Part shown: positions 15,492-42,279 of the stretch, piece after piece
How positions within the stretch are numbered: position 1 is the first letter of the stretch
How the letters are laid out: every line of letters starts with the position of its first letter
Origin: an uncultured Bacilli bacterium
GTDB lineage: Bacteria; Bacillota_I; Bacilli_A; RF39; UBA660
Assembly (NCBI GenBank): GCA_947588795.1
Contig: CANPZJ010000001.1
Coordinates: 1 to 44,609 of the forward strand
Direction of reading: 5' to 3'
Length of the DNA stretch: 44,609 nt
Made by a program: the position numbers and the translations under genes
Notes under the pieces: model-generated
The model's input: the letters and a program-made list of their open reading frames with translations, nothing else
Told to the model about the DNA's origin: nothing
The model's database searches: none

Positions 15492-16343
15492 TTAACCAAT
15501 ATATTTTGAAACAGTAGTTTGATTACTTAATTCATTATCATTATTTACATTATAATTAGCATACTTTTTATCGCCTTGATATAAGCATAAACAATAATTA
15601 ATTGAACCACCATAACTTTCTAAATCACATTCTTTATATGTTCCACTTATTTTACTATTATCTTCTGTCAAAATAAGTTCAAATTCACCATTTTCTTTTA
15701 ATTCTATTGTACTAATCAAATCACTAGATGTTCCATTATCTTGCCACATTTCATATTTTCCAAATGATAATTTAAAATCACCAACAGAAATACTTTTATT
15801 ATTTTCATTTCCTATTTGGTTATCATCATTATCAAATTCAATAATTGGAACATCACTACTACCATAACTATTATCTTTTGTTTGTTCAAAGAAAATATAA
15901 ACTTTGGCATCTTCAAAATCATATAAATACATTTGCATTAAATCTTTATCTTTATAATTAATTAATTTTATCTCTAAATTTTTTTCTATATCATCAGTAT
16001 TATTAATATTTGTATCAGTTGTATCATAAAAACTAATAGTATTATTTTCATATTTATATTTACCACTTAAATTATAGTAACAGCCGATATTTAATTTAAA
16101 AGTATTATCATCATTAATTGTTAAAGAATTATCACTATCTTTTAGACAAGTTCCAAACAAAGAATTAAGATTGGTATAATTATCATTATTAGCTCTAACA
16201 TTAGTATTTAAATGCCAAATACCTAAAATGTTTTTAGAAGCATTATCATTATCCTTTTCTAATGTTTTACCACAACCTGTCATACTTAAAGTAATAATTG
16301 CTAACAATAAAATTGTTAATATTTTACTTTTATTATTCTTCAT
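15492..16343 (-). CDS. Lipoprotein, unknown function
   Basis: 283 aa. The signal peptide MKNNKSKILTILLLAIITLSMTGCGK contains a lipobox. Confidence 0.8.
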   Translation of the reverse strand: MKNNKSKILTILLLAIITLSMTGCGKTLEKDNDNASKNILGIWHLNTNVRANNDNYTNLNSLFGTCLKDSDNSLTINDDNTFKLNIGCYYNLSGKYKYENNTISFYDTTDTNINNTDDIEKNLEIKLINYKDKDLMQMYLYDFEDAKVYIFFEQTKDNSYGSSDVPIIEFDNDDNQIGNENNKSISVGDFKLSFGKYEMWQDNGTSSDLISTIELKENGEFELILTEDNSKISGTYKECDLESYGGSINYCLCLYQGDKKYANYNVNNDNELSNQTTVSKYIG

Positions 16344-16755
16344 TTAAAAGATCTTCTTTATAACTAGCAAGATAGCTTAAATATTGTTGGTATCCGCCTT
16401 CTTCATCACCATTTTTAAATTTGTAAACATTTGATAAGCAACCACCACAAGTTAATTTTTTATACCATCTAACTTCTATATCATTGCCCGTATTTTTATC
16501 TTTACCAGTTAATATTATAGCCCCACTTCCATCAGTAGCAATATAACTATCATCTTCACTCCATTTTTGATCTAAAACACAATAGTCTAAATATTCACCA
16601 ACTGTATGGCTTCCTAAAAGACCAATAGTGTGATTTCTTTGTTCAATCATGGCTTCCGTAAATTCAAATTTAGAATTACTTCCACCATTATTACCACAAC
16701 CCATTAAAGTTAAAGATAAAACCCCTATTAATAATATACTTAATATTTTTTTCAT
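16333..16755 (-). CDS. Lipoprotein, unknown function
   Basis: 140 aa. MKKILSILLIGVLSLTLMGCGNN contains a lipobox. It overlaps the next gene by 11 nt. Confidence 0.8.
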   Translation of the reverse strand: MKKILSILLIGVLSLTLMGCGNNGGSNSKFEFTEAMIEQRNHTIGLLGSHTVGEYLDYCVLDQKWSEDDSYIATDGSGAIILTGKDKNTGNDIEVRWYKKLTCGGCLSNVYKFKNGDEEGGYQQYLSYLASYKEDLLNEE

Positions 16756-16771
16756 AAATTAAAATTCCTTC

Positions 16772-17746
16772 CTATAAACTAAAATCCCCTATTATAGTGC
16801 CATCTTTTTTTGTAATAACTACTTCTTTACCTTCTTTAAAAAGATATACATCATCATAAATATAATAATTAGAATACTTAGGTTCCACTATTACTTTTTT
16901 ATTTTCAAGATCATACAATCCGGTTAAAAGATAACCTTCACTACTATTCTTCATAATAAATATAATTTTTGGATTATCTAAATCAAATTCATAATTATCA
17001 TATTCTCCAAGTTTAAAAACATAATTTCCGTTTGTATCAATAATGCCTTCGCCTTCATCCTTTGTTCTAACTTTGGCATATCCTAATTTGTTAAAATCAT
17101 ATACATAATCATACATCTTATCCCCAAAGACTTGTTCATGTGTTTCTTTATCAACAAAGAAATATTTTTCTTCATTACCTATCCATTTATAAGATGCTTC
17201 AACATCGAAAAGATCTTCTTCTTCAGGTTTTTCTACTTCATTACCATTTTTATCTATATAAATTGTTTCACCATATTCAGGCATGACACGAGCAACACCA
17301 TTATCAAAGCTACCACATTGATAGAAAGTTTTATCAAAAATATTTTTTCCTGTCTTATCGATGTATATGCATTCATTAATGCTACCCGTTAAAACTGCTG
17401 CAATTCCATCAACAAAATTACTTCTATAAAATGAATCATAAGTTCTTTTTTCTGGTGGTAATTCAAATTGTGGTTCAATAACATACTCGCCTTTATTATT
17501 GATATAACCCATTTTATTGTCCTTAAAAACTGCTGCTAGGTCTTCATAAAAACCATAAGCTGTATCATATTGTGATTCTATTACTATTTTTCCTTTAGCA
17601 TTAACATAGCCCCAAGTTGCACCAGTTTGAACAGGATATAAATCTCCATTATTATTAGATCCACCTTTAGAATCTTTACTTCCACATCCCGTTAAACTAA
17701 CTATTAAAACTCCAATTAATAATATACTTAATATTTTCTTCTTCAT
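16772..17746 (-). CDS. Lipoprotein with WG-containing beta-propeller-type repeats
   Basis: I prefer the start at MKKKILSILLIGVLIVSLTGCGS (17744-17746). WG-repeat signatures are TWGYVNAKGKIVIESQYD and KMGYINNKGEYVIEPQF. Confidence 0.8.
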   Translation of the reverse strand: MKKKILSILLIGVLIVSLTGCGSKDSKGGSNNNGDLYPVQTGATWGYVNAKGKIVIESQYDTAYGFYEDLAAVFKDNKMGYINNKGEYVIEPQFELPPEKRTYDSFYRSNFVDGIAAVLTGSINECIYIDKTGKNIFDKTFYQCGSFDNGVARVMPEYGETIYIDKNGNEVEKPEEEDLFDVEASYKWIGNEEKYFFVDKETHEQVFGDKMYDYVYDFNKLGYAKVRTKDEGEGIIDTNGNYVFKLGEYDNYEFDLDNPKIIFIMKNSSEGYLLTGLYDLENKKVIVEPKYSNYYIYDDVYLFKEGKEVVITKKDGTIIGDFSL

Positions 17747-17762
17747 ATTTACCTCAATCATC

Positions 17763-18095
17763 TTAATAAAAGAATGTCCATAAATTTTTAGCATTACATT
17801 TAGGGCATACTTTTTCTCTATTATCGGGATTATTTCTAATTGCTGCTACTACACCAATGTAAATTAAACCAGGAACAATACCCATTACTAAAAAGATAGC
17901 ACCTAAAACATAATCGATTGGTCTTAGTAATGGTCCGAGTACCCAATCGCCTTCATAACCACAACATGTGCATTTTGGCTTATCATGCTTTTTTTCTTTC
18001 TTTTCATCCTTTTCATCTTCTTTTACTTTTGCCCCACAATTAGCACAAAATTTCACATCTTCATCTAATTTACTTCCACATTCTTTGCAATACAT
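17763..18095 (-). CDS. Zinc-ribbon plus LITAF-like membrane-inserted zinc-knuckle protein
   Basis: Start is the ATG at 18093-18095, with AAGGAGAG 8 nt upstream. MYCKECGSKLDEDVKFCANCG is a zinc ribbon. Then comes CTCC, a 25-aa hydrophobic stretch (YVLGAIFLVMGIVPGLIYIGVVAAI) and CPKC, which is the LITAF/SIMPLE-like layout. Confidence 0.7.
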   Translation of the reverse strand: MYCKECGSKLDEDVKFCANCGAKVKEDEKDEKKEKKHDKPKCTCCGYEGDWVLGPLLRPIDYVLGAIFLVMGIVPGLIYIGVVAAIRNNPDNREKVCPKCNAKNLWTFFY

Positions 18096-18127
18096 TTTTA
18101 TCACTCTCCTTCAATTTTTATATATTG

Positions 18128-18649
18128 CTAATTTTCTTTTAATTCATAGATGTTTTTATATTCTTCTACGCCAATTTCACCTTTCATTGATTCAAAATTA
18201 ATTTTATTATTTTCTATATAACCAATATATTCTTCATCTATTTCATCATCATATGGCTCACCAAAACTAGTCATACCAGTACTTTTTGTATAATTAATAG
18301 TTATTTTATTACCTTCTATTTTATAAGTACCTGTTTTACTAGCTTCCCAATATTCATTATAATAAGATGCCTTATTATTTTCTAAAGTTATAGTTAAATT
18401 ATATCCTTCGGCTTCTGTTCCTTTAGTACCTGGATCTATTTCTATATATGTGCCTTCAGTAAAAGCAACCTTATTTTCATTAACATTTTCTTCCTTTGGT
18501 ATATCGTTTGTATTAGTATTAACATTATTTGTATTATTAGGTTCTTCCTTAGATAAGTTATTAGTACCACATCCAGTTAAGGCTATCATTAATATACCTA
18601 TAAGGAATATATTACATAATTTTTTTAATCTATTTATTTTAATATCCAT
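18128..18649 (-). CDS. Lipoprotein, unknown function
   Basis: 173 aa with the lipobox LIGILMIALTGCGTNN and an N-rich linker. Confidence 0.75.
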   Translation of the reverse strand: MDIKINRLKKLCNIFLIGILMIALTGCGTNNLSKEEPNNTNNVNTNTNDIPKEENVNENKVAFTEGTYIEIDPGTKGTEAEGYNLTITLENNKASYYNEYWEASKTGTYKIEGNKITINYTKSTGMTSFGEPYDDEIDEEYIGYIENNKINFESMKGEIGVEEYKNIYELKEN

Positions 18650-19665
18650 GGACTTGACTCACTCCCATCTCCACTAGATAATTCTATATTTGCTTTTAAG
18701 GTAACAATTGGTTTAATATTGCCATCAACTGAGTATTCAAAACTTTCACCTTTTGTATAAGCACCGTCACTACCTTTTAAATAAAGTTTATAAATATTTT
18801 CACTTATATATTTATAAGTATTTAATTTACTATCATAACTAAATCTAGGTAAATCATAATCTATATAATCAGAATTCCAATTTAAATCATGAGCAATTAA
18901 TGTTTCAACATCACCATAAAGCCATACAGCCCAACTATTATTAATTAAGCTTTTATAATTTTCATCAGTAATACAATCATTTAAACCATTATTCATTATA
19001 TAACTTCTATTAAAAGTTACTTCTTGATTATCTAATTTAATTGTATCCCCATAAGTATGACCAGTCATAGAACTATAATAAGTTTTACTAATACTATTTA
19101 AAACATCTTTCTTTGAACCACTTGTATCAATATTTTCATCTCTCGTGTATAAAGATGATTCAGCATCATATGTTTTTAAAAAATATTTTACGGTAGCATC
19201 TATATCTAGCATATTTTCTAAATCTTTTTTACTAATACTTCTACTTGATATAGCATAATTACTATTAGCATATATTTGCGCTATATTATTTAATTCACTT
19301 TTATAATTATCAACACCAATTTGGCCTTTAAAACGTAGACCTGAATCAATTATAGATTTAGCATAACCATCTAAAATTAAGTCAATTGTTCCATCATTAT
19401 TAAGGCTCATTACTCGCCATTTTTCTTCACCAGTTACTTCAAATGTTTGGTCTTTATCATAACCAGTTTTATTTTTAGTAGCTGTATATGATTTTCCTTT
19501 TTCGGCTTGATAATTAACATAATCACCTACTTTTATTTTCGATACTAAACTATTTTTAACAGGCTTATTATTAGTAGTTCCATTTGTAACAGTTTCACTA
19601 CCACATCCAGTTAAACTAATAAGTAAAACCCCAATTAATAATAAACTTAATATTTTCTTTTTCAT
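18634..19665 (-). CDS. Lipoprotein, unknown function
   Basis: 343 aa. MKKKILSLLLIGVLLISLTGCGSE contains a lipobox. Confidence 0.8.
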   Translation of the reverse strand: MKKKILSLLLIGVLLISLTGCGSETVTNGTTNNKPVKNSLVSKIKVGDYVNYQAEKGKSYTATKNKTGYDKDQTFEVTGEEKWRVMSLNNDGTIDLILDGYAKSIIDSGLRFKGQIGVDNYKSELNNIAQIYANSNYAISSRSISKKDLENMLDIDATVKYFLKTYDAESSLYTRDENIDTSGSKKDVLNSISKTYYSSMTGHTYGDTIKLDNQEVTFNRSYIMNNGLNDCITDENYKSLINNSWAVWLYGDVETLIAHDLNWNSDYIDYDLPRFSYDSKLNTYKYISENIYKLYLKGSDGAYTKGESFEYSVDGNIKPIVTLKANIELSSGDGSESSPWILK

Positions 19666-19672
19666 TATTTAC

Positions 19673-20419
19673 TCACTTTCTTTTTTGATAGAATTGTCCA
19701 CCATTACTATTAGCATATCCAGTACCAATTGAATTACCTTTTTTATCACGATACATTGTATTACCTAGATTATCTTTAACAGCATCACCAACAATGTTAC
19801 CTTTTTTATCCATAAATACTTGTGAATCATGCATTCCTTTAAAAGAAGAACCTATAACATTACCTTTAACATCTTCAAAAACTAAGCCACCGTTTAAACC
19901 AGCATAACTTCTGCCAATAACATTACCATTTTTATCTTGATAGATATATCCACCATTATCATTAGCATAACTATAAGCAACATCACCAAAATCCATACCA
20001 GTATTATTAGTTTCTAAAGATTCAAGACTAATATTAAAGATAAGTTTAATTAAGAATTTAAAGATTGGTAATAAATTAGTTAAGAAAATACTAACTAAAA
20101 TTGCTTCAATAATTCCACTTCCTCCAAATAAGGCAAAGATAAAATAAACTATATAATAACTTGCTTGTGATAAGAAATCAAAATAATCAGTATCACCAAT
20201 ATAACCTTTAGCTATTTTAAATTTAATTACAAATTTAGCAATAAAACGATATACAATAGGAAAGAAAGCACAGATAGGAAATAATACCATATTAGCATCA
20301 TTTTTAACAAATAATGTTGTAATAAATAAAAGTAACATACAGATAGGTCCTGCTACTAAACCATATATTACATAGAAAGAACTTTTTTTAATATTATCTA
20401 TTTTGAATAAATCACTCAT
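19673..20419 (-). CDS. Polytopic membrane protein with C-terminal 21-aa YD-like repeats
   Basis: 248 aa with about 4 N-terminal TM helices. The C-terminus has 4.5 repeats of xNGGxh(Y/F)xDxKGNxIGxS(Y/F)xG, for example GGYIYQDKNGNVIGRSYAG and NGGLVFEDVKGNVIGSSFKG. Confidence 0.75.
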   Translation of the reverse strand: MSDLFKIDNIKKSSFYVIYGLVAGPICMLLLFITTLFVKNDANMVLFPICAFFPIVYRFIAKFVIKFKIAKGYIGDTDYFDFLSQASYYIVYFIFALFGGSGIIEAILVSIFLTNLLPIFKFLIKLIFNISLESLETNNTGMDFGDVAYSYANDNGGYIYQDKNGNVIGRSYAGLNGGLVFEDVKGNVIGSSFKGMHDSQVFMDKKGNIVGDAVKDNLGNTMYRDKKGNSIGTGYANSNGGQFYQKRK

Positions 20420-20438
20420 TTTTTAAACACTCCTTTAA

Positions 20439-21401
20439 TTAACCTTGATACGTTACATCAGATCTAGTATCAGCAAAGCCATTATTTTTAAAGACTGAGA
20501 AATACTTATCATCTTGACCACTTATATGGAAAATAATATGATATCCTGAAACATATTCACCAAATTCCATACCAGAATATTTTTTTATTTCAAAAGTACA
20601 ATCAGTTGTATCTATCTTATAATCATTATCTTTATAACTACAAGTATTATCGGTATTTAAAGTAATATCGACAAAAGAATTTTTATACCTACCATATTTT
20701 AATGTATATTCGCCTGCAGTAATTACTTTACTTTCTTCTTCTTTAATTTTTGCTTTTACTTCTTCTACTTTTTTATCTGTTTCTTCTTTTATTTTATCAG
20801 TTACTTGATTTACTTCTTTATCTTCAACTAAATTATAAACAATATCTTTAGCTTTAGAAATATCCTCAACTTTTGCTTTAGATACTTCATCTATAAGAAC
20901 ATATTTTTTTTCAAATTCTGATTTTGTGAAATTTTTAGTAACACCATTTCCATAAGCATCTTCAACAAATAAATCAATTAATCTAATTTCTATTTTGCCA
21001 TCTTCTAATTCACGATAAAATATCCACTCATATTTTTCATCTGCAATATTATATAAAAGTTTTAAATCAAAACCATTATCACGGTAAACACTAAACTTAT
21101 AATCAGAATTTTCATCAAGATATACTGTTCCAATAGCACCATCTGGACTATCTCCTTCAGCATCTGATCCTTGTCCTAATAAAACCATAATAGGTTCAAC
21201 AAAGGCATCTAATTTAATAAAGGCAACTTCAAAATCTTTTTGCTCTGTAAACAAACTATGATCGCCCGAAATATATTCAGCATACTTCTCTTCCCAATCT
21301 TCTTTTAAGAAGGTTTCTTTTTTATTAGTATTATTGTTTCCACAGCCTATTAAAGTTAAAGATAAAATACTAATTAATAATATACTTAACACTTTTTTCA
21401 T
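20439..21401 (-). CDS. Lipoprotein, unknown function
   Basis: I prefer the start at MKKVLSILLISILSLTLIGCGNN (ATG 21399-21401, AAGGAG 11 nt upstream). There is a K/E-rich coiled segment mid-protein. Confidence 0.8.
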   Translation of the reverse strand: MKKVLSILLISILSLTLIGCGNNNTNKKETFLKEDWEEKYAEYISGDHSLFTEQKDFEVAFIKLDAFVEPIMVLLGQGSDAEGDSPDGAIGTVYLDENSDYKFSVYRDNGFDLKLLYNIADEKYEWIFYRELEDGKIEIRLIDLFVEDAYGNGVTKNFTKSEFEKKYVLIDEVSKAKVEDISKAKDIVYNLVEDKEVNQVTDKIKEETDKKVEEVKAKIKEEESKVITAGEYTLKYGRYKNSFVDITLNTDNTCSYKDNDYKIDTTDCTFEIKKYSGMEFGEYVSGYHIIFHISGQDDKYFSVFKNNGFADTRSDVTYQG

Positions 21402-21420
21402 AAACTCACACACTCCTTAA

Positions 21421-22677
21421 TTATATTTTTTTATTTAATTGTCTATAACTAATAATTATACAGCTTATACTAATTAGTATAAGTGATATAAATACATTTA
21501 TATCATCGCCTGTTTGAGGTGGTATTAAATCATTAGTATTAACTACTTCATTTTTATCTACTTTATCACTAGTAGGAATAGTTTTATCGCCAATATATTT
21601 AGCATTAATAGTAAATCCGCTATTATCACCAATAACTTCATATTCATAATCTTTGGTATCATCTAATTTTAAATTATATTCTATTTGTTCTTTTCCAAAA
21701 GAATATTTAATATTTTTAAATAATTCTAAATCAGTTTGCCATTTATCTAAAGTTATTTCTTCTTCTACTTCATCATATTGATTAATTGTTTTAATTAATA
21801 ATTTACTAGGCCTTTTCTGATAAATATTATTATCATCTAACCAATTAACCTTTATAGGTACTTTTATTCTCTCTGCTTTATGATTTATAGTATATATAAT
21901 ATTACCATCTTCATCGGCTTCAACTGTATATGTATAGGTATCATCGGTTAAATTTTTAACTTCGTCTAAAATACCATATTCATATTCTATTTTATTTAAT
22001 TCATTATCAGTTACATCAGTAACTAAATATTTAACTAATTCCATTATATAACTATATTCATCTACTTTTAATTTTACTGTACCACCGACACTATAATAGG
22101 TATCTATTGTATTTATTCCTTTCATATAGAAATAAATATAACGATAATTATCACGACCATTATCATCATTAAATATTTCTTTTACAGGAATATCTCTAGA
22201 TACATCTTTAACTAATGTTATTTCTAAAACATTGGCATCAAAATTACTACAATATGTAGGAGTAACACAGCCAAGTTGACCCTGCTCAAAAATATCAATG
22301 CCTTTTATGTAACTTCTTGGTAAGTTAAAATCTACCGAACTATCAAATTCAAATTTTAAATTTATATTAGTAGAATTGAAAGGAAAAGATATATTAAATG
22401 TCCAATAAGTATAGATACCATTTTCAGTTATTTGAGCATCTTTCTTGTTTAAAGTTAATTCATACTGTACCGTTTTAGTTTTACCACCACTCCAAACTTC
22501 TGCTTTTAAAGGTATTGTAATTTCATCAGGGCGCATATTAAGTTTATTATGAGCATCAACCCACTTTATTACTACTTTGCCACCATAATCAAAATTCCCT
22601 ATCATTATTGCTTTTGTCACTAGTGGAAATAGAAATAAACAAATTAATACAAATATAAAATTTTTTATTTTTTTCAT
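21421..22677 (-). CDS. Cell-wall-anchored protein with CnaB-type domains and a PPQTG sorting signal
   Basis: 418 aa with signal peptide MKKIKNFIFVLICLFLFPLVTKA. CnaB-like segments are KWVDAHNKLNMRPDEITIPL and VNWLDDNNIYQKRPSKLLIK...IEYNL...YEYEV. The tail is IPPQTGDDINVFISLILISISCIIISYRQLNKKI. Confidence 0.85.
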   Translation of the reverse strand: MKKIKNFIFVLICLFLFPLVTKAIMIGNFDYGGKVVIKWVDAHNKLNMRPDEITIPLKAEVWSGGKTKTVQYELTLNKKDAQITENGIYTYWTFNISFPFNSTNINLKFEFDSSVDFNLPRSYIKGIDIFEQGQLGCVTPTYCSNFDANVLEITLVKDVSRDIPVKEIFNDDNGRDNYRYIYFYMKGINTIDTYYSVGGTVKLKVDEYSYIMELVKYLVTDVTDNELNKIEYEYGILDEVKNLTDDTYTYTVEADEDGNIIYTINHKAERIKVPIKVNWLDDNNIYQKRPSKLLIKTINQYDEVEEEITLDKWQTDLELFKNIKYSFGKEQIEYNLKLDDTKDYEYEVIGDNSGFTINAKYIGDKTIPTSDKVDKNEVVNTNDLIPPQTGDDINVFISLILISISCIIISYRQLNKKI

Positions 22678-26018: not shown

Positions 26019-26783
26019 TTAGTCACTTATTTTCTTGGCCACTACAACAAAGCGACCATTTTCTCTTGAATATTCACAAGTTGATAAAGTAATTAATTTA
26101 TCACCATATTTGGCATCTACTCCAGTATCAAATTTTGATGCCTTTTTGGCATTACTGACAAAATCATTATATGCTTCTTCACTTTCGGCATTAACAAAAT
26201 AATAATAACGAAAAACATTAGTCTCATTTGAATAATATACTCTACTATAGAATATTGCTAATATTTCATAAGTAGCATCTTCTTCTAAAGTAGTTAAATT
26301 AATCGTTTTATGTTCTTCATAAAAATCTTTTTTCGCATATTTAATTAATGGTTCAAACATTAAACCATATTTATTTCGATGACCATATATTTGTAAATTA
26401 TCACTTTCATTTATTTTGACATCTTTATCAAAATAAATGGCTCCCGCTGATGATTTTTCATTTTTATAATTATGGTTTAAATAATAGTCATTATCCGTTG
26501 TTTCTACTACTGGATAATTAATATCTGTTCCTTCTATTTCTAACCAAGCTACGACATTTTCATAACTTTTATGTAACTCTTTTAATTTATTAATTTTTTG
26601 TTCATGAATATCTTCTTTTTGATCTATATCATGAAATATATTAGATACATCTTTGTAAGTATTTTTATCATTACTTGCATTAGTTAATTCTACTACTATA
26701 TATGATATGCCTAGAATTATAATTAGTAACAATATAATAATTATAATAATTTTTATCGGTTTTTTGAGTTTTCTCTTATGCAT
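26019..26783 (-). CDS. srtB: Class B sortase
   Basis: 254 aa with an N-terminal TM. Motifs are VAWLEIEGTDINYPVVETTDNDYYLNH, IYGHRNKYGLMFEPLIKY, the catalytic LITLSTCEY and a downstream RFVVVAK. Confidence 0.9.
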   Translation of the reverse strand: MHKRKLKKPIKIIIIIILLLIIILGISYIVVELTNASNDKNTYKDVSNIFHDIDQKEDIHEQKINKLKELHKSYENVVAWLEIEGTDINYPVVETTDNDYYLNHNYKNEKSSAGAIYFDKDVKINESDNLQIYGHRNKYGLMFEPLIKYAKKDFYEEHKTINLTTLEEDATYEILAIFYSRVYYSNETNVFRYYYFVNAESEEAYNDFVSNAKKASKFDTGVDAKYGDKLITLSTCEYSRENGRFVVVAKKISD

Positions 26784-26796
26784 AATATTCCTCTAT

Positions 26797-26833
26797 CTAA
26801 AAAGTAGAATTAAGTTTTAAACTTAATTCTACT
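26797..26833 (-). terminator. Hairpin plus T5 between the third TPxLG paralog and srtB (partial terminator/attenuator?)
   Basis: AGTAGAATTAAGTT pairs with AACTTAATTCTACT (26803-26833), a 13-14 bp perfect AT-rich stem. TTTTTAG follows on the minus strand. The srtB SD (AGAGGAA) begins about 12 nt later. Confidence 0.5.
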
Positions 26834-26844
26834 AACTATCTATC

Positions 26845-27285
26845 TTAGTCTTTCTTTAAAACTTTGATTAAACATACACCGGCACATAATACAAGTAAAC
26901 TAGCTAGTCCAATATAACTTGGTACTCCTAAAGTTGGTGTACTATCAGCTTTAACATTGCTTAAGGCAATTACAAATGGTGATAATTCATCTACTTCTAC
27001 TGTTACTTTACCATCTATTATTTCTTTTTCAAAAGTTTCTATTGTACCATTACTTTTTTTATGAAGTACTGTCGCCTTTTCTCCATTATATTTACTATCT
27101 ACATTAAATGATACATTTAATTTTCCTTCATAATCACCATTTAATTTTACTTCATATGATCCAAGTACTTTTTTACCTTCTAATTTTTGATTTAACTCTT
27201 TATAAACATCAGAATTTGTATCTAATTTTTCAACTGCTAAAGTACTATCAATATCTTTTTTACCAACAACTGCTACACCATTATT
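26845..27285 (-). repeat. ~440-bp conserved 3' module, copy 3 of 3 (direct repeat)
   Basis: About 90% nucleotide identity by eye with 27900-28340 and 29171-29611. Boundaries are approximate. Confidence 0.7.
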
Positions 27286-27882
27286 AGTATCTTCTACACT
27301 AGTTTCATTTAAGACATATTTCCTTGTTAATGAAATTCTATAGACTTCTGTTCCTTCAGCATCATAACCAATGTATTCACCAGTACTTTCAGGTTTTAAC
27401 GCAAAGCTTTGTTCATCATAAACATTATTAACATTATAATGTTCTTTTACATCACCATACTCTGCATGATAATAAATTAATGGTGTATTACCACCAAAAC
27501 CATCAGGAAATTCATCTTTATCATATGTTACATCACCAGACACAACTCTGACAACATCATCTATAAACATCTTATGATTAAGATTGAATGTAATACTATT
27601 CTCACCAAATTCTTTTTTAAATTTATCAAATAATTCGTTACCAGCATAAATTGTTTTACCATCTATTAAAGCCTTATATACATCATAATCATTTATCTTG
27701 ATTAATAAAGTATTATCTTCAATAGAATAATCAAATACATTTCCTTTATAATTATCACTTGCCCATTCAAAATCCAATAAAGTTTTACCATCAACCTCAA
27801 GAGCTTTAACACTAGGTGTTACTACTACAAGCATTGCTAGCATAAAAATAGGAAATATTAATTTTTTTAAAATATTTTTCAT
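26845..27882 (-). CDS. Secreted surface protein, TPxLG-tail family, paralog C
   Basis: 345 aa with signal peptide MKNILKKLIFPIFMLAMLVVVTPSVKA. The variable N-terminal domain is followed by a conserved 146-aa C-terminus ending VDELSPFVIALSNVKADSTPTLGVPSYIGLASLLVLCAGVCLIKVLKKD. Confidence 0.9.
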   Translation of the reverse strand: MKNILKKLIFPIFMLAMLVVVTPSVKALEVDGKTLLDFEWASDNYKGNVFDYSIEDNTLLIKINDYDVYKALIDGKTIYAGNELFDKFKKEFGENSITFNLNHKMFIDDVVRVVSGDVTYDKDEFPDGFGGNTPLIYYHAEYGDVKEHYNVNNVYDEQSFALKPESTGEYIGYDAEGTEVYRISLTRKYVLNETSVEDTNNGVAVVGKKDIDSTLAVEKLDTNSDVYKELNQKLEGKKVLGSYEVKLNGDYEGKLNVSFNVDSKYNGEKATVLHKKSNGTIETFEKEIIDGKVTVEVDELSPFVIALSNVKADSTPTLGVPSYIGLASLLVLCAGVCLIKVLKKD

Positions 27883-27899
27883 AATTATCTTCTCCTAAA

Positions 27900-28340
27900 T
27901 TAGTCTTTCTTTAAAACTTTAATTAAGCATACACCAGCGCATAATACAAGTAAGCTTGCTAGTCCTACATAACTTGGTACTCCTAAGATTGGTGTACCAT
28001 CGGCTTTGACATTACTTAGGGCAATTACAAATGGTGATAATTCATCTACTTCTACTGTTACTTTGCCATCTGTTATTACTTTTTCAAATGTTTCAACTGT
28101 ACCATTACTTTTCTTATGTAATACTGTTGCTTTTTGGCCATTATATTTACTATCTACATTAAATGATACATTTAATTTTCCTTCATAACTACCATTTAAT
28201 TTCACTTCAAAAGCTCCAAGAACTTTTTTACCTTCTAATCTTTCATTTAATTCTTTATAAATATCTGCATTTGTATCTAACTTTTCGACTGTTAATGAAG
28301 AATCATTATCAATTGCACCACTAACACTAACATTTTTTTC
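27900..28340 (-). repeat. ~440-bp conserved 3' module, copy 2 of 3
   Basis: See 26845-27285. Confidence 0.7.
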
Positions 28341-29159
28341 TTCATTAGTAACAGTCGTACCAGCATATTCCATTCTTATTTTTAAAGTTGTATAACCACT
28401 ATTATCTCTTTCACGAACAATTCCAGTATCAGCCCATAAATAAGCATCTGTTTCTTTATAATTTCTAATCAAAAATTCAGAATTTATATAAGATGCAATT
28501 GGTGCTCCAACAGGAAAACCTGATCTCCAACTATTATTTTCTTCATCATAAGCAAATAAAATTCCAGAATAATCTAAATAAACAAAATTACCTTTACTAT
28601 CTTGACTATGAAAATCATCATCAACACTATATGATCTAGTTCCTGATTGATAAGTCACTAAGTCATCTGTGATTGGTGCTATAGTTATGTCTTTTATATC
28701 ATCTTGAAAATATATTTTAATCATTAGGCTAACAACTCCATCATTTACATATGGCACTAATTTTTGCCATAATTCTGGAGTTTCTTTTTCAGTTATATCT
28801 TTTTTATTCACTATTGCTTTATATAAATCATAATCTTTTACTTTAACTACAATCTCGTTATTTGCATAAGTAAAATCAAATATATTATTTTGATGAGCAA
28901 CATTATAACCAACTGTAATATAATCTTCAGGTTTTAATTCTGTATTACCTTTATATATCGGATAAATAAGTTCACCTTGATAATTTTCGTGATCTTCAGA
29001 TTCCTTATATTTTTCATATTCTTCATTAAACTTTTTATAACTTTCTAAAACTTTATCTTTATCAGTAAACATTTCTGTTTTCATTTCTGCCATAGTTACT
29101 ACTGGTAATAACATAATAGCAAATACTATAGCAAAACATATTTTATTAATTTTTTTCAT
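27900..29159 (-). CDS. Secreted surface protein, TPxLG-tail family, paralog B
   Basis: 419 aa with a signal peptide ending VTMA. The conserved C-terminus ends ...NVKADGTPILGVPSYVGLASLLVLCAGVCLIKVLKKD. Confidence 0.9.
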   Translation of the reverse strand: MKKINKICFAIVFAIMLLPVVTMAEMKTEMFTDKDKVLESYKKFNEEYEKYKESEDHENYQGELIYPIYKGNTELKPEDYITVGYNVAHQNNIFDFTYANNEIVVKVKDYDLYKAIVNKKDITEKETPELWQKLVPYVNDGVVSLMIKIYFQDDIKDITIAPITDDLVTYQSGTRSYSVDDDFHSQDSKGNFVYLDYSGILFAYDEENNSWRSGFPVGAPIASYINSEFLIRNYKETDAYLWADTGIVRERDNSGYTTLKIRMEYAGTTVTNEEKNVSVSGAIDNDSSLTVEKLDTNADIYKELNERLEGKKVLGAFEVKLNGSYEGKLNVSFNVDSKYNGQKATVLHKKSNGTVETFEKVITDGKVTVEVDELSPFVIALSNVKADGTPILGVPSYVGLASLLVLCAGVCLIKVLKKD

Positions 29160-29170
29160 AGCTTTTTCTC

Positions 29171-29611
29171 CTAATCTTTCTTTAAAACTTTAATTAAACA
29201 TACACTGGCACATAACACAAGTAAACTAGCTAGTCCTACATAGCTTGGTACTCCTAAAGTTGGTGTACTATCTTCTTTGACATCACTTAATGCAATTACA
29301 AATGGTGATAATTCATCTACTTCTACTGTTACTTTACCATCTGTTATTACCTTTTCAAATGTTTCAATTGTACCATTACTTTTCTTATGAAGTACTGTTG
29401 CCTTTTCTCCATTGTATTTACTATCTACATTAAATGATACATTTAATTTTCCTTCATATTCACCATTTAATTTTACTTCAAAGGCTCCAAGTAATTTTTT
29501 GCCTTCTAATCTTCCTACTAATTCTTTATATACATCTGCTTTTGTATCTAACTTTTCTACTGTTAAAGTAGTATCCATATTTTTTTTACCTGTAACTGAT
29601 ACACCATTATT
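29171..29611 (-). repeat. ~440-bp conserved 3' module, copy 1 of 3
   Basis: See 26845-27285. Confidence 0.7.
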
Positions 29612-30355
29612 TTCATCTGCTACACTTGATTCACCAAGTTCATAACTAAATTTTATTTTAGAAGTAAATACTTCATTGCCATTTGCATCAAGGCCAACAA
29701 ACTTATAAGTATAGCCCCAGTTGTAATCCCATTCTCCGCTCTTTTGTAATGGTGTCCAAACAACAGTCGTTTTACCATCAACAGAATCATACCAGGCATC
29801 AAATAAAACACCAGCTCTATCGGAATCATAATAATATTTACCATTTTCATCTTGTTTAATATTTATACCACCATTTAAATCAAAAACACCATTATCTTCT
29901 TCTTTGCCATCTTGGTTATATAATAAAAATGAAATTTTTGTAACATTATCAGGAAAATAAATATGCGGATGTAACCCTAGTGTCCCTTGAACTTCGGTTC
30001 TATCTTCATCTTCAATTGGAATTTCTTTTAAATATTTAGATAATTTATTATAAAGTGGTGTTCCTTCTCTTATTAAAGTATCAGTTTTTGAATCAGAGCC
30101 ATTAATACTTTCTTGCCAAGTTTTGTCTACTAACACTAGCTCATTGTAAAGATCAATATCTTTAACTTTTAACACTACTTCACCATTTTCATAAGTATAA
30201 TCAAATACTTCGCCTAATCCTTGATATGGTATTAAAGTAATAAATTCCTTTGAGTCAATTTCCTCTGCTCTAACCATTGTTGGTACCATAAATAACATCA
30301 TTGTTAAACATAATATTGTTGAAAATATACTTGTTAATTTTTTCAATTTTCTCAT
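29171..30355 (-). CDS. Secreted surface protein, TPxLG-tail family, paralog A (first gene of the block)
   Basis: 394 aa with a signal peptide ending MVRA. The conserved C-terminus ends ...DVKEDSTPTLGVPSYVGLASLLVLCASVCLIKVLKKD. GGAG sits only 1 nt from the ATG at 30355, so the in-frame TTG at 30344-30346 (MKKLTS...) is an alternative start. Confidence 0.85.
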   Translation of the reverse strand: MRKLKKLTSIFSTILCLTMMLFMVPTMVRAEEIDSKEFITLIPYQGLGEVFDYTYENGEVVLKVKDIDLYNELVLVDKTWQESINGSDSKTDTLIREGTPLYNKLSKYLKEIPIEDEDRTEVQGTLGLHPHIYFPDNVTKISFLLYNQDGKEEDNGVFDLNGGINIKQDENGKYYYDSDRAGVLFDAWYDSVDGKTTVVWTPLQKSGEWDYNWGYTYKFVGLDANGNEVFTSKIKFSYELGESSVADENNGVSVTGKKNMDTTLTVEKLDTKADVYKELVGRLEGKKLLGAFEVKLNGEYEGKLNVSFNVDSKYNGEKATVLHKKSNGTIETFEKVITDGKVTVEVDELSPFVIALSDVKEDSTPTLGVPSYVGLASLLVLCASVCLIKVLKKD

Positions 30356-30374: not shown

Positions 30375-30404
30375 ATTATAATATACCCCCCCCGAAAAAA
30401 TCAA
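30375..30404 (-). promoter_or_regulatory. Promoter with a G8 tract in the spacer, heading the TPxLG/sortase block
   Basis: Minus strand reads TTGATT(30399-30404)-TTTTC-G8(30386-30393)-TATAT-TATAAT(30375-30380), an 18-nt spacer. The core TTC-G(n)-TATA is shared with the three promoters at 1323-4592. Confidence 0.55.
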
Positions 30405-30537: not shown

Positions 30538-31500
30538 TTATTTTTTCGTTGACTCTTTCCATTCTTCATTATTTGATTTTTCAAATGAATTAGTACGAAT
30601 ATTTAGTTTGTAATAGTTATATTTATTTGTTTTTCGATCAACAATATATAAAATGACACTATCATCATCAATCCATTTATGATCAGTCATTTTAAAACCA
30701 TATCTTTCTAATTTAACTTTAGTTAATAATTCTTCTTTTAATTTACTATAATCATTTTCTTCACTAATATTATAAGTTTTAGATAATTCTTCCAAAGTAT
30801 TAAGATAACTTATTTTTAAAAATTCAAAATTATCTGTAATTTTTTCTTTGCTTCTAATTTCATCATAAGAATCATCATCATAAACAAACCAAGATGTCAA
30901 AGTATTTTTAGCCTGAGGACTATCTTTAAAAGCGGTATCAGCTGCAAAAACAAATGTTGTAGCAAAAATGAAACCAAATACATATTCCAAAAATAATATT
31001 GGAAAAGAATAGCCAAAGCCTTCATCTCTTGTATAATTAATAATATTAATAACTAGTAAAGGAATATATATTCCTGAAAGAATTCGACATATCCAACCAT
31101 TATAAGTAAAATTCAATAAGATTCCATGCGGTAATTTAATTAAAGAATAAACTACAAATGCTATAATTATAAGACATTCTACTATTATAACAAATTTATT
31201 GCGATCTTTCTTAACTACTTTATTTAATTCATAATCAGTTTTAGGCTCTTTATTTTTCTTAAATAAAGATTTAATTTTAGCAAAAATAGCTTTAGGAGTT
31301 ATTTCAATATTTTGATCCGTAAAAATATACATAATAAATTTACCTAATTCCATTAAAGATACTAGCATAACTATTAAAGCTAAAGCATATCCCGAAATAT
31401 GAGCCATTTCTAATAAAATATAATAAACTAAAAAGCCAATTCCTCCTGTAACAAAACCCACTATTAATAAAAAGATAAACATTCCTGTTGTTCCCATCAT
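30538..31500 (-). CDS. Polytopic membrane protein with a C-terminal soluble domain, unknown function
   Basis: 320 aa with AGGAG 7 nt upstream of the ATG at 31500. There are about 6 TM segments. It is in frame with the decayed zinc-ribbon leader upstream. Confidence 0.75.
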   Translation of the reverse strand: MMGTTGMFIFLLIVGFVTGGIGFLVYYILLEMAHISGYALALIVMLVSLMELGKFIMYIFTDQNIEITPKAIFAKIKSLFKKNKEPKTDYELNKVVKKDRNKFVIIVECLIIIAFVVYSLIKLPHGILLNFTYNGWICRILSGIYIPLLVINIINYTRDEGFGYSFPILFLEYVFGFIFATTFVFAADTAFKDSPQAKNTLTSWFVYDDDSYDEIRSKEKITDNFEFLKISYLNTLEELSKTYNISEENDYSKLKEELLTKVKLERYGFKMTDHKWIDDDSVILYIVDRKTNKYNYYKLNIRTNSFEKSNNEEWKESTKK

Positions 31501-38852: not shown

Positions 38853-40211
38853 ATGAACGGTGAATTAGAAAAAATAAAAGAATATGAGGCAAAATTAGCT
38901 GCCCGAAAGGCATTAAAGAAAACCTATGATGACCAAATCAAAAAAGGTAGAATTTTAACAGATGAAGAAACTAAGGAACATCTAGCATTATGTGATGAAA
39001 TTAAACTTTTAAAGGATAAAATTAAAGAACTAAAATCTCATAAAGCTAATGATAATCAAGATATTGAAGAAGCCGAAACAGAAAAAAAACAAAAAAGAAT
39101 TCAAGCTGCTTTAATTGGCCTTGCATGTCTTACAAGTATGGGAATTGGAATAGTTGCAACTAAAGTTTTTTCAGAACCTAAAAATAATTCTGAAAAAACT
39201 AGTGATGATACTAAAGCAACTGAAGAACCAGTTGCTACAATAGCTCCTACTGATGCTTATAACTATGAAGAAAACACTTATGTAGCACCTGAAACTGAAG
39301 TTATTAATACTCCTGAACCTACTGTTATACCAGAACCTGCTGCTACACCAGTTCCAACACCTGATGTTACGATAACTCCTGAACCTACTTTAACTCCAGA
39401 ACCAACTGCTACACCAGTTCCAACACCAAGTAATCCATTTATGAATGTAATGGGTTATAATGAAGCATATTTAAAAGATTATGAAGATGCAATGAATAGA
39501 TATAATATTTTAGCTGAAAAAGCAGTTGACTATGTTAATCGTACTCATATTATTCAAGATAATTATCATTTCTTTGCAGAAACAAGTATTAATGAAGCTC
39601 TTAAAGTAATAATGGCTATTGATCAAAGAGAAATAATGACAGATGAAAATAACAATGTTGCTGATGCAATGAATAATTCACTTAATACTGTTTTAGATGG
39701 TGTCTTATGGAAAGGCTTAACTGATGCCGATATAGCTAAGTTAGATGCTATACCTTATTTTGCGGAAGAAGGTACTGATTTAAATATCCATTTAAAAGAA
39801 TATGCAAGACTTGCTAAAGATGCAATTGTTAACCAAACTGAAGAAGCATTTAATAATATGTATCAATACTTACAAATATTTACATTAAGTCAATTTGATA
39901 ATACTTTAGCGGTAAATATCATAGAACCTGATGGTTCAATTACTGAAAGACCAGTAAATGAATCAACTGTTGAAATTGTTGGTACTGTAACAAGAGAATT
40001 TTATGATGCTGCAACTGTTAATAATGTTTTTGATTGGTGGATGGCTTACAATTCATTTATAAAACCACTTTATAGTACATACTTTCCTTATGATTATTAT
40101 GATGAAAGAGTTAGAAGATGGGAAGACTTGCAATGTATTATGCAATCTGGTATGGAAGATCCTAAATTTGATGAAGTATGTGGTAATTCATTAACACTTG
40201 GAGGTGAATAA
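38853..40211 (+). CDS. Bitopic protein: N-terminal coiled coil, TM, PEPT-rich linker, unknown C-terminal domain
   Basis: 452 aa. The promoter is TTGACA-17 nt-TATTAT upstream, with SD AAAGGGGGG. The linker PEPTVIPEPAATPVPTPDVTITPEPTLTPEPTATPVPTP is encoded by a duplicated ~66-bp unit. Confidence 0.8.
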   Translation: MNGELEKIKEYEAKLAARKALKKTYDDQIKKGRILTDEETKEHLALCDEIKLLKDKIKELKSHKANDNQDIEEAETEKKQKRIQAALIGLACLTSMGIGIVATKVFSEPKNNSEKTSDDTKATEEPVATIAPTDAYNYEENTYVAPETEVINTPEPTVIPEPAATPVPTPDVTITPEPTLTPEPTATPVPTPSNPFMNVMGYNEAYLKDYEDAMNRYNILAEKAVDYVNRTHIIQDNYHFFAETSINEALKVIMAIDQREIMTDENNNVADAMNNSLNTVLDGVLWKGLTDADIAKLDAIPYFAEEGTDLNIHLKEYARLAKDAIVNQTEEAFNNMYQYLQIFTLSQFDNTLAVNIIEPDGSITERPVNESTVEIVGTVTREFYDAATVNNVFDWWMAYNSFIKPLYSTYFPYDYYDERVRRWEDLQCIMQSGMEDPKFDEVCGNSLTLGGE

Positions 40212-40212
40212 T

Positions 40213-42279
40213 ATGTATACAGAAGATACAAGAAGAAGTATTGATTGGCCTAGTGTTATCAAAAAAGGATTAATTATTTTAATAGTAGCCTTAGTTATAT
40301 TCTTAATTATTTGGCTATTTGCTAGAAATAACAATAATAATGTTAATGTCAATGTTGGTAATGACAATAATACTAATAATGGTACTTTAACTAATCCAGA
40401 TGCTTATTCTAATGAATTTATTAATGGTTTCCATTATGTTCATGATATTGCAAAAGATTACTTCTTAGTTAAAGAATTACCTGCTAATGGACAAACTATT
40501 AAATATACCTTAAGAGAATTAATTGACAAAGGTTTAATTCTTCCGTTTACTTATAAAGATAATGAAACTTGTGATGTTGAAGCAAGTTATGTAACTGTTA
40601 CAAATGAAAATGGTAAATATAGTATGACTACTACTCTAGTTTGTGGTAGAGAAGTTGCTAAAACTACAGAAGAATTAGGTTGTAATCAATTATGTGTAAG
40701 CGGAAATTGTAAAGTAACGATTGTTGAAAACAAACTTGCCTATGAATATCAATTTAGACAAGCATATAGTACAACAGAAAATGTTTATATTTGTCCTGAT
40801 GGCTATACTAAATCTATGAATGGTAACAACGTTATTTGTGTTAAAGGTGATGAAACAACAATTAATTCAACAAAATTAACAGAATACAATTGTCCAGAGG
40901 GTTATACTAAAACTGGTAGTGGCAGTAATACAATGTGTGTAGCTGACAAAAATAAAACTACTGCTCCAACTTGCCCTGATGGTTATTATCAATCTGGTGA
41001 TAAATGTACTAGAGTAAGTTCTAGCCAAAAAACTGAAACAACTGAAGCTACTTGTCCTAGTGGCTATACTAAATCTGGTAGTGGTTCAAATATCACTTGT
41101 TCTAAAATAAATACTAGTACTAGAGTTGAAACTATTGAAGCTATTTGTCCAAATGGCTATACTAAATCTGGTAATGGTTCAAATATCACTTGTTCTCAAA
41201 GTGTAGCATCATCTAAAACAGAAACAACTAATCCAACTTGTCCTAAAGGATATACTAAATCTGGTAGTGGTTCAAAAATCAAATGTACTAAAACTACTTC
41301 TTCAACAGTTAATGCAACTGCTAAAAAATCATATAGTTGTCCAAATGGTGGTACTTTAAGTGGTACTAAATGTAAATATACTGCTACAGGTAAAAAATCA
41401 ACATATTATCAAAGTTTTATAACATCAAAAGGAAAAACATATAATGGTTGTTCATTAGTAGGAACATATACTTCACCATGTGCTAGTGGTAAAAATTGTA
41501 CTCAAACATATTATAGATATTTATGTACAACCACAACTTATAGTTGTCCAAAAGGTGGCTCTGTAAGTGGTACTACATGTTCTTATAATGCAACTTCAAA
41601 AACTACATATAGTTGCTCTAAAGGAACTTTAAGTGGTACTAAATGTAAAATATCAGATACTCAATCTGCTAATCCAACTTGTCCTAGTGGCTATACTAAA
41701 TCTGGTAGTGGTTCAAACATTAAATGTTCTAAAAGCGTTCCAACTACTATAACTCAAACTGCTAATCCAACTTGTCCTATTGGTTATGTACAATCTGGTA
41801 GCGGTGCATCAATAAGCTGTTCTAAAAATGTTGTTGCTAACACTACAGATACTACTAATCCAATTTGTCCTAGTGGTTATGCTCAAATTGGTAGTGGTGC
41901 ATCAATTCAATGTTCTAGAACTACAGCATTTTCTTCTGCCGAAAGTAAAGACTTTATTTGTCCAGATGGTTTCACAAAAACAGGAAGTGGTGCTAATACT
42001 AAATGTACTGCTAAAGAAACTTTAAAGAAAAATGCTACAGTACATACAGATTATGTATGTCCTAATGGTTATACAAAATATGGTATTGGTTCAAATTCTA
42101 AATGTACAAAAGGTATTACAAGTACTGTAAATCCAACTAAACAAACTAAAGAAGTAACAAAATATAGATATAAATGGAGTTGTGAAACAACTCTTACAGG
42201 TTGGGAAAGAACAGGAAACTATCGTCAATCAACAACTTGTACAAATACTAATACAAATGAAGAAGTTATTGTCAAATAG
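40213..42279 (+). CDS. Membrane-anchored protein with ~14 tandem CPxGYTKSGSGSxxxC cysteine repeats
   Basis: Start is the ATG at 40213, with GGAGGTGA 5 nt upstream (the track uses a TTG at 40198). It has an N-terminal TM, an N-rich spacer and a ~110-aa domain. Repeated units then follow, such as CPSGYTKSGSGSNITC, CPNGYTKSGNGSNITC and CPKGYTKSGSGSKIKC. Confidence 0.85.
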   Translation: MYTEDTRRSIDWPSVIKKGLIILIVALVIFLIIWLFARNNNNNVNVNVGNDNNTNNGTLTNPDAYSNEFINGFHYVHDIAKDYFLVKELPANGQTIKYTLRELIDKGLILPFTYKDNETCDVEASYVTVTNENGKYSMTTTLVCGREVAKTTEELGCNQLCVSGNCKVTIVENKLAYEYQFRQAYSTTENVYICPDGYTKSMNGNNVICVKGDETTINSTKLTEYNCPEGYTKTGSGSNTMCVADKNKTTAPTCPDGYYQSGDKCTRVSSSQKTETTEATCPSGYTKSGSGSNITCSKINTSTRVETIEAICPNGYTKSGNGSNITCSQSVASSKTETTNPTCPKGYTKSGSGSKIKCTKTTSSTVNATAKKSYSCPNGGTLSGTKCKYTATGKKSTYYQSFITSKGKTYNGCSLVGTYTSPCASGKNCTQTYYRYLCTTTTYSCPKGGSVSGTTCSYNATSKTTYSCSKGTLSGTKCKISDTQSANPTCPSGYTKSGSGSNIKCSKSVPTTITQTANPTCPIGYVQSGSGASISCSKNVVANTTDTTNPICPSGYAQIGSGASIQCSRTTAFSSAESKDFICPDGFTKTGSGANTKCTAKETLKKNATVHTDYVCPNGYTKYGIGSNSKCTKGITSTVNPTKQTKEVTKYRYKWSCETTLTGWERTGNYRQSTTCTNTNTNEEVIVK
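40792..42105 (+). repeat. Coding tandem-repeat array (~80-95 bp units, several near-identical at DNA level)
   Basis: The recurrent string is TGTCCTAGTGGCTATACTAAATCTGGTAGTGGTTCAAA(T/C)AT. The first Cys codon is at 40792 and the last at 42103-42105. Confidence 0.75.

Follow-up and report, generated by a model that had tools for sequence, protein, structure and literature searches.

Pro and the P1 Thr are the most conserved positions of sortase sorting signals, and a direct catalytic role has been ascribed to the Thr. Natural non-canonical signals include NAKTN and NPKSS (Listeria monocytogenes SrtB) and LPLAG (Streptococcus pyogenes FctB), with P1 residues that include Ser and Ala; to our knowledge, none of them has a large hydrophobic residue at P1. 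Here, we report the analysis of a 44,609-nucleotide stretch of DNA from an uncultured Bacilli bacterium (GenBank assembly GCA_947588795.1, contig CANPZJ010000001.1, positions 1 to 44,609; hereafter, the window), in which three paralogs encoded directly upstream of a class B sortase gene, srtB, end in a conserved tail that carries Leu at P1 of a TPxLG motif.

The closest described systems share parts of this arrangement. Clostridioides difficile SrtB, which cuts PPKTG between Thr and Gly with demonstrated linkage to meso-diaminopimelic acid (PMC4591827), is also a class B enzyme with x-P-K-T-G-type signals on putative adhesins ((S/P)PxTG substrates, e.g., CD2831, PPKTG, and CD3246, SPKTG), and the predicted TPKTG ancestor of the window tail is of this type. 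The window differs from C. difficile in its P1 Leu and P4 Thr, in its substrate genes, which form an operon directly upstream of srtB, and in its lineage of uncultured Bacilli. Like the window, Bacillus anthracis has a dedicated sortase that adjoins its substrate (IsdC, D-NPKTG-D-E) and recognizes more than the pentapeptide, and E-NPKTG-D-N tails occur in the window too. Residues on both sides of the pentapeptide are required by B. anthracis SrtB, and the transmembrane (TM) helix is possibly read as well (PMC11987632). Unlike IsdC, the TPxLG proteins have no NEAT or haem-uptake domain, and their tail has Thr at P4, Leu at P1, and Val rather than Asp at P2'. Streptococcal class A sortases (SrtA) are described as preferring LPxLG over LPxTG in vitro (Schmohl et al. 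2017, as relayed in reviews PMC8248031 and PMC9126251); by those accounts, a scissile P1 Leu is accepted, even preferred, by a sortase and would thus be chemically acceptable to some of these enzymes. That preference concerns class A enzymes and synthetic peptides, with no natural LPxLG substrates reported in those accounts, whereas the window has a class B enzyme, natural proteins, and an evolutionarily fixed motif.

Locus and tail

Positions 26019-30355 are filled by four minus-strand genes in the same direction, as follows.

29171-30355, minus strand: paralog 3 (394 amino acids), with a Sec signal peptide (…PTMVRA, then EE), a divergent beta-rich N-terminal part, an 'ELSPF' pre-anchor domain, and a TPTLG tail
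27900-29159, minus strand: paralog 2 (419 amino acids), with the architecture of paralog 3 and the motif TPILG
26845-27882, minus strand: paralog 1 (P0009; 345 amino acids), motif TPTLG
29288-29608 (paralog 3), 28017-28337 (paralog 2), and 26962-27282 (paralog 1), minus strand: 'ELSPF' pre-anchor beta domains
29171-29266, minus strand: paralog 3 tail, with TPTLG at 29252-29266, then VPSY, a hydrophobic segment, KKD, and the stop codon
27900-27995, minus strand: paralog 2 tail, with TPILG at 27981-27995, then VPSY, a hydrophobic segment, KKD, and the stop codon
26845-26940, minus strand: paralog 1 tail, with TPTLG at 26926-26940, then VPSY, a hydrophobic segment, KKD, and the stop codon
26019-26783, minus strand: class B sortase gene srtB (254 amino acids), directly downstream of the paralogs

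The original prediction had described three neighboring paralogs with a common TP(T/I)LG-VPSY tail and no xPxTG in any of them, and the open reading frames and tail sequences bear this out. The common end is ...ELSPFVIALS[N/D]VK[A/E]D[S/G]TP[T/I]LGVPSY[I/V]GLASLLVLCA[G/S]VCLIKVLKKD, that is, D-x-TP[T/I]LG-VPSY, about 19 hydrophobic residues, and KKD. T-P-x-L-G lies 31 residues before the stop codon, with Pro (P3) and Gly (P1') invariant in 15/15 distinct gene ends. The hydrophobic segment VGLASLLVLCAGVCLIKVL, followed by KKD, has the hydrophobic and positively charged end of an LPXTG-type signal. Each paralog starts with a Sec signal peptide (basic n-region, hydrophobic core, and AxA-like site, read by eye from the sequence). 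A structural model of paralog 1 (AlphaFold 2 [AF2]; pLDDT, 76.7) is all-beta, with beta-sandwich domains, a C-terminal TM helix at residues 324-344, and the motif in a disordered segment (314-323). The paralogs matched no family and no pilin domain in Pfam and NCBIfam, and a Foldseek search of the model against the PDB gave nothing significant (best E, 2e-3; TM-score, 0.13).

Conservation of the tail against divergent N-terminal domains had been offered as an argument for function. That argument is confounded, as the whole of the last ~145 residues (beta domain plus tail) is ~90% identical among the paralogs and forms a 300-nucleotide DNA repeat with 88-91% identity. Conservation among the paralogs does not single out the motif, and evidence from outside the window was therefore needed.

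One further feature of the tail is a Cys near the cytoplasmic end of the helix (CL[I/V]KVLK), which is invariant in all TPxLG tails, including the divergent members P0027 and P0039, and absent from TPKTG relatives. The C-L-I codons of …VCLIKVLKKD lie at 26860-26868, 27915-27923, and 29186-29194.

Ancestry of the tail

A search of 5.8 billion proteins returned a close family of 13 clusters, all with TPxLG tails, plus three distant relatives that have NAQTS, NISTG-D, and TPQTS-D at the same place. A profile of the beta domain before the tail, with the tail itself left out, was then run against 1.84 billion representatives (E up to 1e-3) and gave 1021 representative clusters, the top 150 of which were parsed for tails. 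In these 150, with few exceptions, no other domain follows the profiled one, and the protein closes with a sortase-type tail (TPKTG in 25, EPKTG in 12, NAQTS in 12, and SPKTG in 4). The domain search also added two more divergent TPTLG members, P0027 (ending …KDNTPTLGVPSYVGLASIIVLTAGFCLVKVLKRD) and P0039 (ending …KDETPTLGIPSYLGIASLLLVSASFCLVKVLKRR), in which TPTLG-[V/I]PSY is kept while identity in the adjacent domain falls to ~50% or less.

The TPxLG tail aligns without gaps to Thr-bearing tails, both as TPTLGVPSYVGLAS (TPxLG family) against TPKTGVNSYLGLAT (L039) and EPKTGVADYTIFAS, and as DSTPTLGVPSYVGLAS (TPxLG family) with DNTPKTGVNSYLGLAT (L039) and NEPKTGVADYTIFAS. By this alignment, TPxLG is TPKTG with Thr replaced by Leu at P1 and Lys replaced by Thr or Ile at the free x position, and the first Thr of TPxLG is the ancestral P4 residue of TPKTG. 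The swap of Thr and Leu that had been proposed is accordingly a misreading, and VPSY is no new element but goes back to the G-V-x-[S/N]-Y extension of the ancestral signal. The homology firmly supports the view that the tail derives, in one lineage, from a class B sortase sorting signal.

The TPxLG tail is homologous to tails that pass the anchor models NF033846 ('NPXTG-anchored protein', Rumino_NPXTG) and TIGR01167 (LPXTG anchor domain): both models accept the TPKTG tail of L039 (NF033846, 23.6 versus a cut-off of 23.5; TIGR01167, 21.8 versus 15.9), and TIGR01167 also accepts the window NPKTG tail. With neither model did the TPxLG tail itself give a score. An in-silico TPTTG revertant of the TPxLG tail is equally unmatched while related TPKTG and NPKTG tails pass, which makes the failure of these profiles uninformative. 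Strongly conserved TM tails are also usual in Thr-bearing subfamilies, e.g., EPKTGVxDYTxFAS…LKFKK across many 50% clusters.

Among the parsed tails, the residues other than Thr at P1 include Met in two (TPKMG and SPKMG), Ala in one (EPKAG), and Ser in one. Met, Ala, and Ser occur at P1 in relatives of the TPxLG family (P0036, P0045, P0037, and L027 2925-4250, with TPKMG, SPKMG, EPKAG, and TPKSG), and these SrtB systems may tolerate more variation at P1 than has been supposed.

The ELSPF domain (~105 amino acids, ending …V(T/E)V.ELSPF(M/V)(I/V)A) is present in 1021 or more representative clusters (P0017-P0159), and Pfam lacks a model for it. The passenger domains in front of it are very varied (BspA-type leucine-rich repeats, Big_3, Flg_new, glucosaminidase, and CBM_X2). 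Four 50%-identity clusters (P0019, P0065, P0083, and P0087) end in …LDNEPKTR[C/N/Y]..RLYNICK…, which corresponds to the EPKTG-VADYTIFAS tail with its reading frame shifted by one base from the exact Thr-Gly junction onward; this could be a recurrent assembly error or phase variation that turns anchoring off.

Selection on the motif

Nei-Gojobori counts were made on 15 distinct gene ends, and the ratio of non-synonymous to synonymous divergence (pN/pS) was obtained by region.

Motif TPxLGVPSY: pN/pS, 0.08
TM segment: pN/pS, 0.20 in these counts (0.20-0.25 overall)
Linker: pN/pS, 0.53
Pre-anchor domain: pN/pS, 0.60 in these counts (0.6-0.7 overall)

Synonymous divergence (pS) was alike across regions (0.32-0.41); for the motif it was 0.35 overall and up to 0.72 versus L012, with non-synonymous change almost nil. 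In four non-overlapping pairs, the motif had 14 synonymous and 3 non-synonymous changes, versus 109 and 286 in the domain plus linker (Fisher p = 7e-6). These counts firmly support strong purifying selection on the motif. Synonymous change is normal, the motif Leu codons are varied (TTA, CTA, and CTT), and within the pentapeptide only x varies (T or I), as in LPxTG, which together rule out mere recency or gene conversion as the cause of its uniformity. A plain hydrophobic anchor is argued against as well, since it would not constrain an extracellular nonapeptide.

Coupling to the sortase

A genome scan with the window sortase gave 40 loci. The closest (81-96% identity) are in metagenome-assembled genomes (MAGs) labeled 'uncultured Bacilli bacterium' from rabbit gut, and relatives at 36-65% identity are mostly in uncultured Clostridia or Tenericutes MAGs. 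The single gene immediately 5' of srtB was tabulated per locus. It is TP[T/I]LG-tailed in 9/9 clade loci that contain the sortase; in 34 other loci, its end is KD-x-TPKTG-V-x-x-Y in 24, TPNTS in one, and APGTG in one. In a distance tree, all TPxLG-linked sortases group in a single clade that lies within the TPKTG-linked ones, which indicates that the Leu form is derived, and the family has grown to 2-3 copies since the change from Thr to Leu. The gene srtB is the sole neighbor constant across loci. That the tail is genetically coupled to its sortase is thus firmly supported.

The tail had been expected to stand next to a sortase rather than to be widespread without one, and this held: the only orphan TPxLG gene (P0003, L001) has no sortase nearby, and another contig of the same MAG, L012, holds a TPxLG-srtB locus (in the order NPKTG gene, NPKTG gene, TPTLG gene, srtB, PBP2B). 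The suggestion of a possible new sorting signal therefore stands in part, with descent, adjacency to srtB, and purifying selection on its side, although the tail is a variant of a TPKTG-type signal and not an unrelated one.

Independent assemblies from several rabbits carry the motif, as do ENA assemblies and one Logan run, and it is thus real rather than an artefact. A scan of JGI metagenomes with the tail alignment gave no matches, and the 23 matches there to a degenerate DNA pattern for TPxLG[V/I]PSY…AS were all spurious high-GC genes, e.g., the amidase-like TPEFGMPCYTEP. A protein search with an eight-tail alignment gave no scored match, the word index being seemingly unsuited to 47-residue queries, and a search with the most divergent member, P0039, returned itself and two known members only.

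As had been proposed, the adjacent gene encodes a class B sortase (TIGR03064, 174.5 bits; cut-off, 153.75; Pfam Sortase, E 2.9e-15). Neither a motif scan nor an SrtB-profile hidden Markov model run over all open reading frames of ≥70 amino acids picked up another sortase in the window. By sequence, its nearest solved relatives in the PDB are SrtB of B. anthracis (1rz2, E 4e-31), L. monocytogenes, C. perfringens, S. aureus, and C. difficile (4ux7); Spy0129 (3psq) is detectably related (E 2e-16). The N terminus, MHKRKLKKPIKIIIIIILLLIIILGISYIVV, is a TM anchor, and His135, Cys236 (in TLSTC), and Arg244 align with His130, Cys223, and Arg233 of S. aureus SrtB. In the clade sortases, every catalytic and known contact residue is retained, including the His-Cys-Arg triad, the Thr that precedes the Cys, and the residues that contact P4 and P3. 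They also have 13 clade-specific positions, some beside known contact residues, including a four-change cluster in beta3 (GS[L/I]FLDKD[F/Y] to GAIYFDKDV, with the equivalent of the Pro-contacting F121 of B. anthracis) and changes in the beta6-beta7 loop and beside the equivalent of B. anthracis K143. Among the substituted residues are Y117, F118, and V122 in beta3, and S185 and T188. These changes are suggestive, though not separable from ordinary divergence. An AF2 model of the tail concatenated to SrtB (two-helix topology, single sequence) reached a pLDDT of only 43 and was uninformative.

Further features of the window that bear on the locus, and peptides that represent the signal types, are as follows.

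26803-26833, minus strand: terminator-like hairpin (14-bp stem, followed by a T-run) that separates srtB from the last paralog, then a GAGGA ribosome-binding site
30375-30404, minus strand: promoter-like site, TTGATT-18-TATAAT, upstream of the first paralog; a consensus match only
1447-3018 and 3199-4497, minus strand: surface-protein genes with canonical E-NPKTG-D-N tails, complete
1-1263: third NPKTG-tailed copy, cut by the window start
21421-22677, minus strand: Cna_B-domain surface protein with a PPQTG-D-D tail
Motif-spanning peptides, Leu form of this family's tail: KADSTPTLGVPSY and VKADSTPTLGVPSY
Motif-spanning peptides, Thr type: KDETPKTGVNSY, EENPKTGDNI (NPKTG), and LIPPQTGDDI (PPQTG)

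The three NPKTG copies and one PPQTG copy that had been listed are present. The NPKTG genes constitute a Thr-type signal class in this genome; the PPQTG gene is four genes downstream of srtB, and L015 has the same order. Promoter-consensus matches showed no enrichment over shuffled sequence. A terminator-like hairpin with a T-run lies 5' of srtB in every locus examined (the window, L004, L005, L006, L012, L013, L015, L017, L019, and L039), and in the TPKTG loci the stems have unrelated sequences at the same position. This conserved position suggests attenuated read-through into srtB, through which substrate would be made in excess over enzyme. A 320-amino-acid membrane protein upstream (30538-31500) was considered as a partner and rejected, since it matches no family, L005 lacks it, and L004 offers no clear counterpart.

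Function of the tail

We give a probability of roughly 0.5 to the reading that the tail is a sortase B signal that, although derived, still works and is cut at the Leu-Gly bond. The three paralogs would be the cognate substrates of the adjacent class B sortase; after export via Sec, the hydrophobic segment and the KKD stop-transfer would retain them in the membrane. SrtB would recognize the extended motif D-x-T-P-x-L-G-V-P-S-Y, cut between Leu and Gly with formation of a thioester between Cys236 and the Leu carboxyl, and pass the protein to a peptidoglycan amine. The conserved D-x…VPSY flanks would fit the extended recognition known for SrtB enzymes. The Leu form would still be cleaved and wall-linked, with one sortase also serving the NPKTG and PPQTG proteins. 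What the data show is that the tail is homologous to bona fide signals, that its synteny with srtB is conserved, that the motif is under purifying selection, and that the active site of the sortase is intact.

The tail might be the first natural sorting signal with a large hydrophobic P1 residue, fixed and expanded in one lineage, with a class B sortase groove that co-evolved (beta3 GAIYFDKDV and the beta6-beta7 loop) and an enzyme that is x-P-x-L-G-specific or dual-specific; we hold this tentatively, at a little under even odds. A dual-specific enzyme would process substrates of the Thr type (NPKTG-D) and the Leu type (TPxLG-V) at differing rates or send them to different fates.

Several points weigh against a cleaved Leu form. 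The P1 residue is Leu in every family member, so that the Thr of an LPXTG-type signal is missing, and Thr occupies P1 in 106/111 parsed related tails. We know of no natural sortase signal with Leu at P1, and the literature searched yielded no natural Leu-P1 or TPxLG-type sorting signal. The title of a 2014 paper by Jacobitz refers to a 'substrate-stabilized oxyanion hole'. In a model of C. difficile SrtB with PPKTG, the P1 Thr hydroxyl hydrogen-bonds the catalytic Arg (PMC5118464), a bond not open to Leu. Canonical NPKTG-D and PPQTG-D tails are also conserved in the genomes that carry TPxLG, and in L012 two NPKTG genes stand directly upstream of the TPTLG gene and srtB; the enzyme presumably still handles Thr signals, and dual specificity would then be needed. 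The ~15 distinct sequences of the TPxLG family come without exception from a single group of rabbit-gut MAGs, and with a family so small and narrow the selection statistics rest on few lineages. The clade sortases are only ~52% identical to others, so that their substitutions are inseparable from plain phylogenetic divergence.

Some of these points favor the alternative that survives best, which we consider unlikely though far from negligible: the change from Thr to Leu made the motif uncleavable, and the tail is a permanent membrane anchor, possibly docking SrtB as a pseudo-substrate, while SrtB serves only the NPKTG and PPQTG proteins. The prevalence of Thr at P1 in related tails, its proposed catalytic role (PMC5118464), and the canonical signals retained beside the same srtB in L012 are all in keeping with this, and the unusually conserved TM segment (pN/pS given above) with its invariant Cys would suit a retained helix with a specific partner. 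However, invariance of the extracellular T-P-x-L-G-V-P-S-Y stretch is not something that a permanent anchor requires, and no other part of the protein is as constrained; the Thr-bearing subfamilies too have strongly conserved TM tails. Adjacency to srtB and the operon layout were moreover fully kept, with the family expanding after the change.

Class B-type sortases polymerize pilins in S. pyogenes, and a pilus-like role for TPxLG, in which SrtB would join the paralogs while NPKTG or PPQTG signals direct wall anchoring, would suit several paralogs beside a dedicated sortase, two signal classes in one genome, and a detectable relationship to Spy0129. We rate this role, which had been proposed for the tail, as improbable: the Pfam, NCBIfam, and Foldseek searches found no pilin-like fold or domain, all paralogs carry an identical tail type, unlike major and minor pilins, and the sortase is nearer the Isd/housekeeping type (B. 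anthracis SrtB) than Spy0129. Of the 24 related loci with a TPKTG gene directly 5' of srtB, the one position tabulated, just one or two show a second sortase-type tail nearby.

Lower again we place a tag for another processing enzyme (a rhomboid, an exosortase-like, or another membrane protease), to which the missing canonical Thr and the specific conserved residues in the TM segment could point. No NCBIfam C-terminal sorting-tag model (PEP-CTERM, GlyGly-CTERM, and similar) matched the tail at E up to 10, and no exosortase-, archaeosortase-, or rhombosortase-type enzyme was found among the ten window proteins scanned. The tail is homologous to sortase B signals, and its one constant neighbor is srtB, the upstream membrane protein lacking a counterpart in L005 and a clear one in L004.

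Least probable of all, and largely refuted, is a motif without function of its own, its identity due to recent duplication and gene conversion: the ~90% shared ends (last ~145 residues, 300 nucleotides) and linker residues that match within a genome (EDN in both L005 copies, EDS in both L004 copies) speak for conversion, but synonymous divergence in the motif is as high as elsewhere with almost no non-synonymous change, and P0027 and P0039 keep TPTLG-[V/I]PSY beside a highly diverged domain.

Other observations

In L001 (1854-2543) and L006 (9108-9797), the gene that directly precedes the TPxLG gene encodes a 229-amino-acid protein whose N terminus has a Zn-ribbon (CxxC…CxxC). Its two chromosomal sites differ, one being that of the orphan copy by an rluA-like gene, and Pfam gave only weak deaminase-like matches; this hints that the surface-protein gene moves together with the Zn-ribbon gene. 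In L003 (3234-5287 and flanks), a distant homologue with a NAQTS tail and its own 254-amino-acid sortase lies amid SSB, resolvase, DnaB-like, RecA-like, and integrase genes, which looks like a substrate-sortase pair on a mobile element.

Elsewhere in the window, three regions were recorded.

40198-42279, plus strand: 693-amino-acid membrane-anchored protein with Cys-rich repeats (CP.GYT[K/Q]SGSGS…C) and no Pfam match, also in a related MAG (L001 4631-6649)
8867-10384, plus strand: Abi_2 (abortive-infection-like) gene beside mraZ, at the head of the cell-division cluster, with markedly lower GC (0.22-0.25)
15492-21413, minus strand: about six genes without known domains, their signal peptides of the lipoprotein type (…L(T/M)GCG…), located between the division cluster and the sortase island

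Significance

A natural Leu-P1 family under purifying selection beside a dedicated sortase would provide a test of the catalytic role of the P1 Thr in class B enzymes. The analysis also defines a widespread pre-anchor domain outside Pfam and, in gut Firmicutes, a conserved operon layout of substrate gene, hairpin, and srtB. If the tail is uncleavable, a one-residue change would have turned a wall-anchored adhesin family into a membrane-anchored one, a warning for motif-based prediction of surface proteomes. If it is cleaved, it would connect to the preference of streptococcal sortases for LPxLG in vitro, which still lacks an explanation; the pair would then be a natural orthogonal motif and enzyme for sortase ligation, and the 'catalytic' P1 Thr would be dispensable in class B enzymes.

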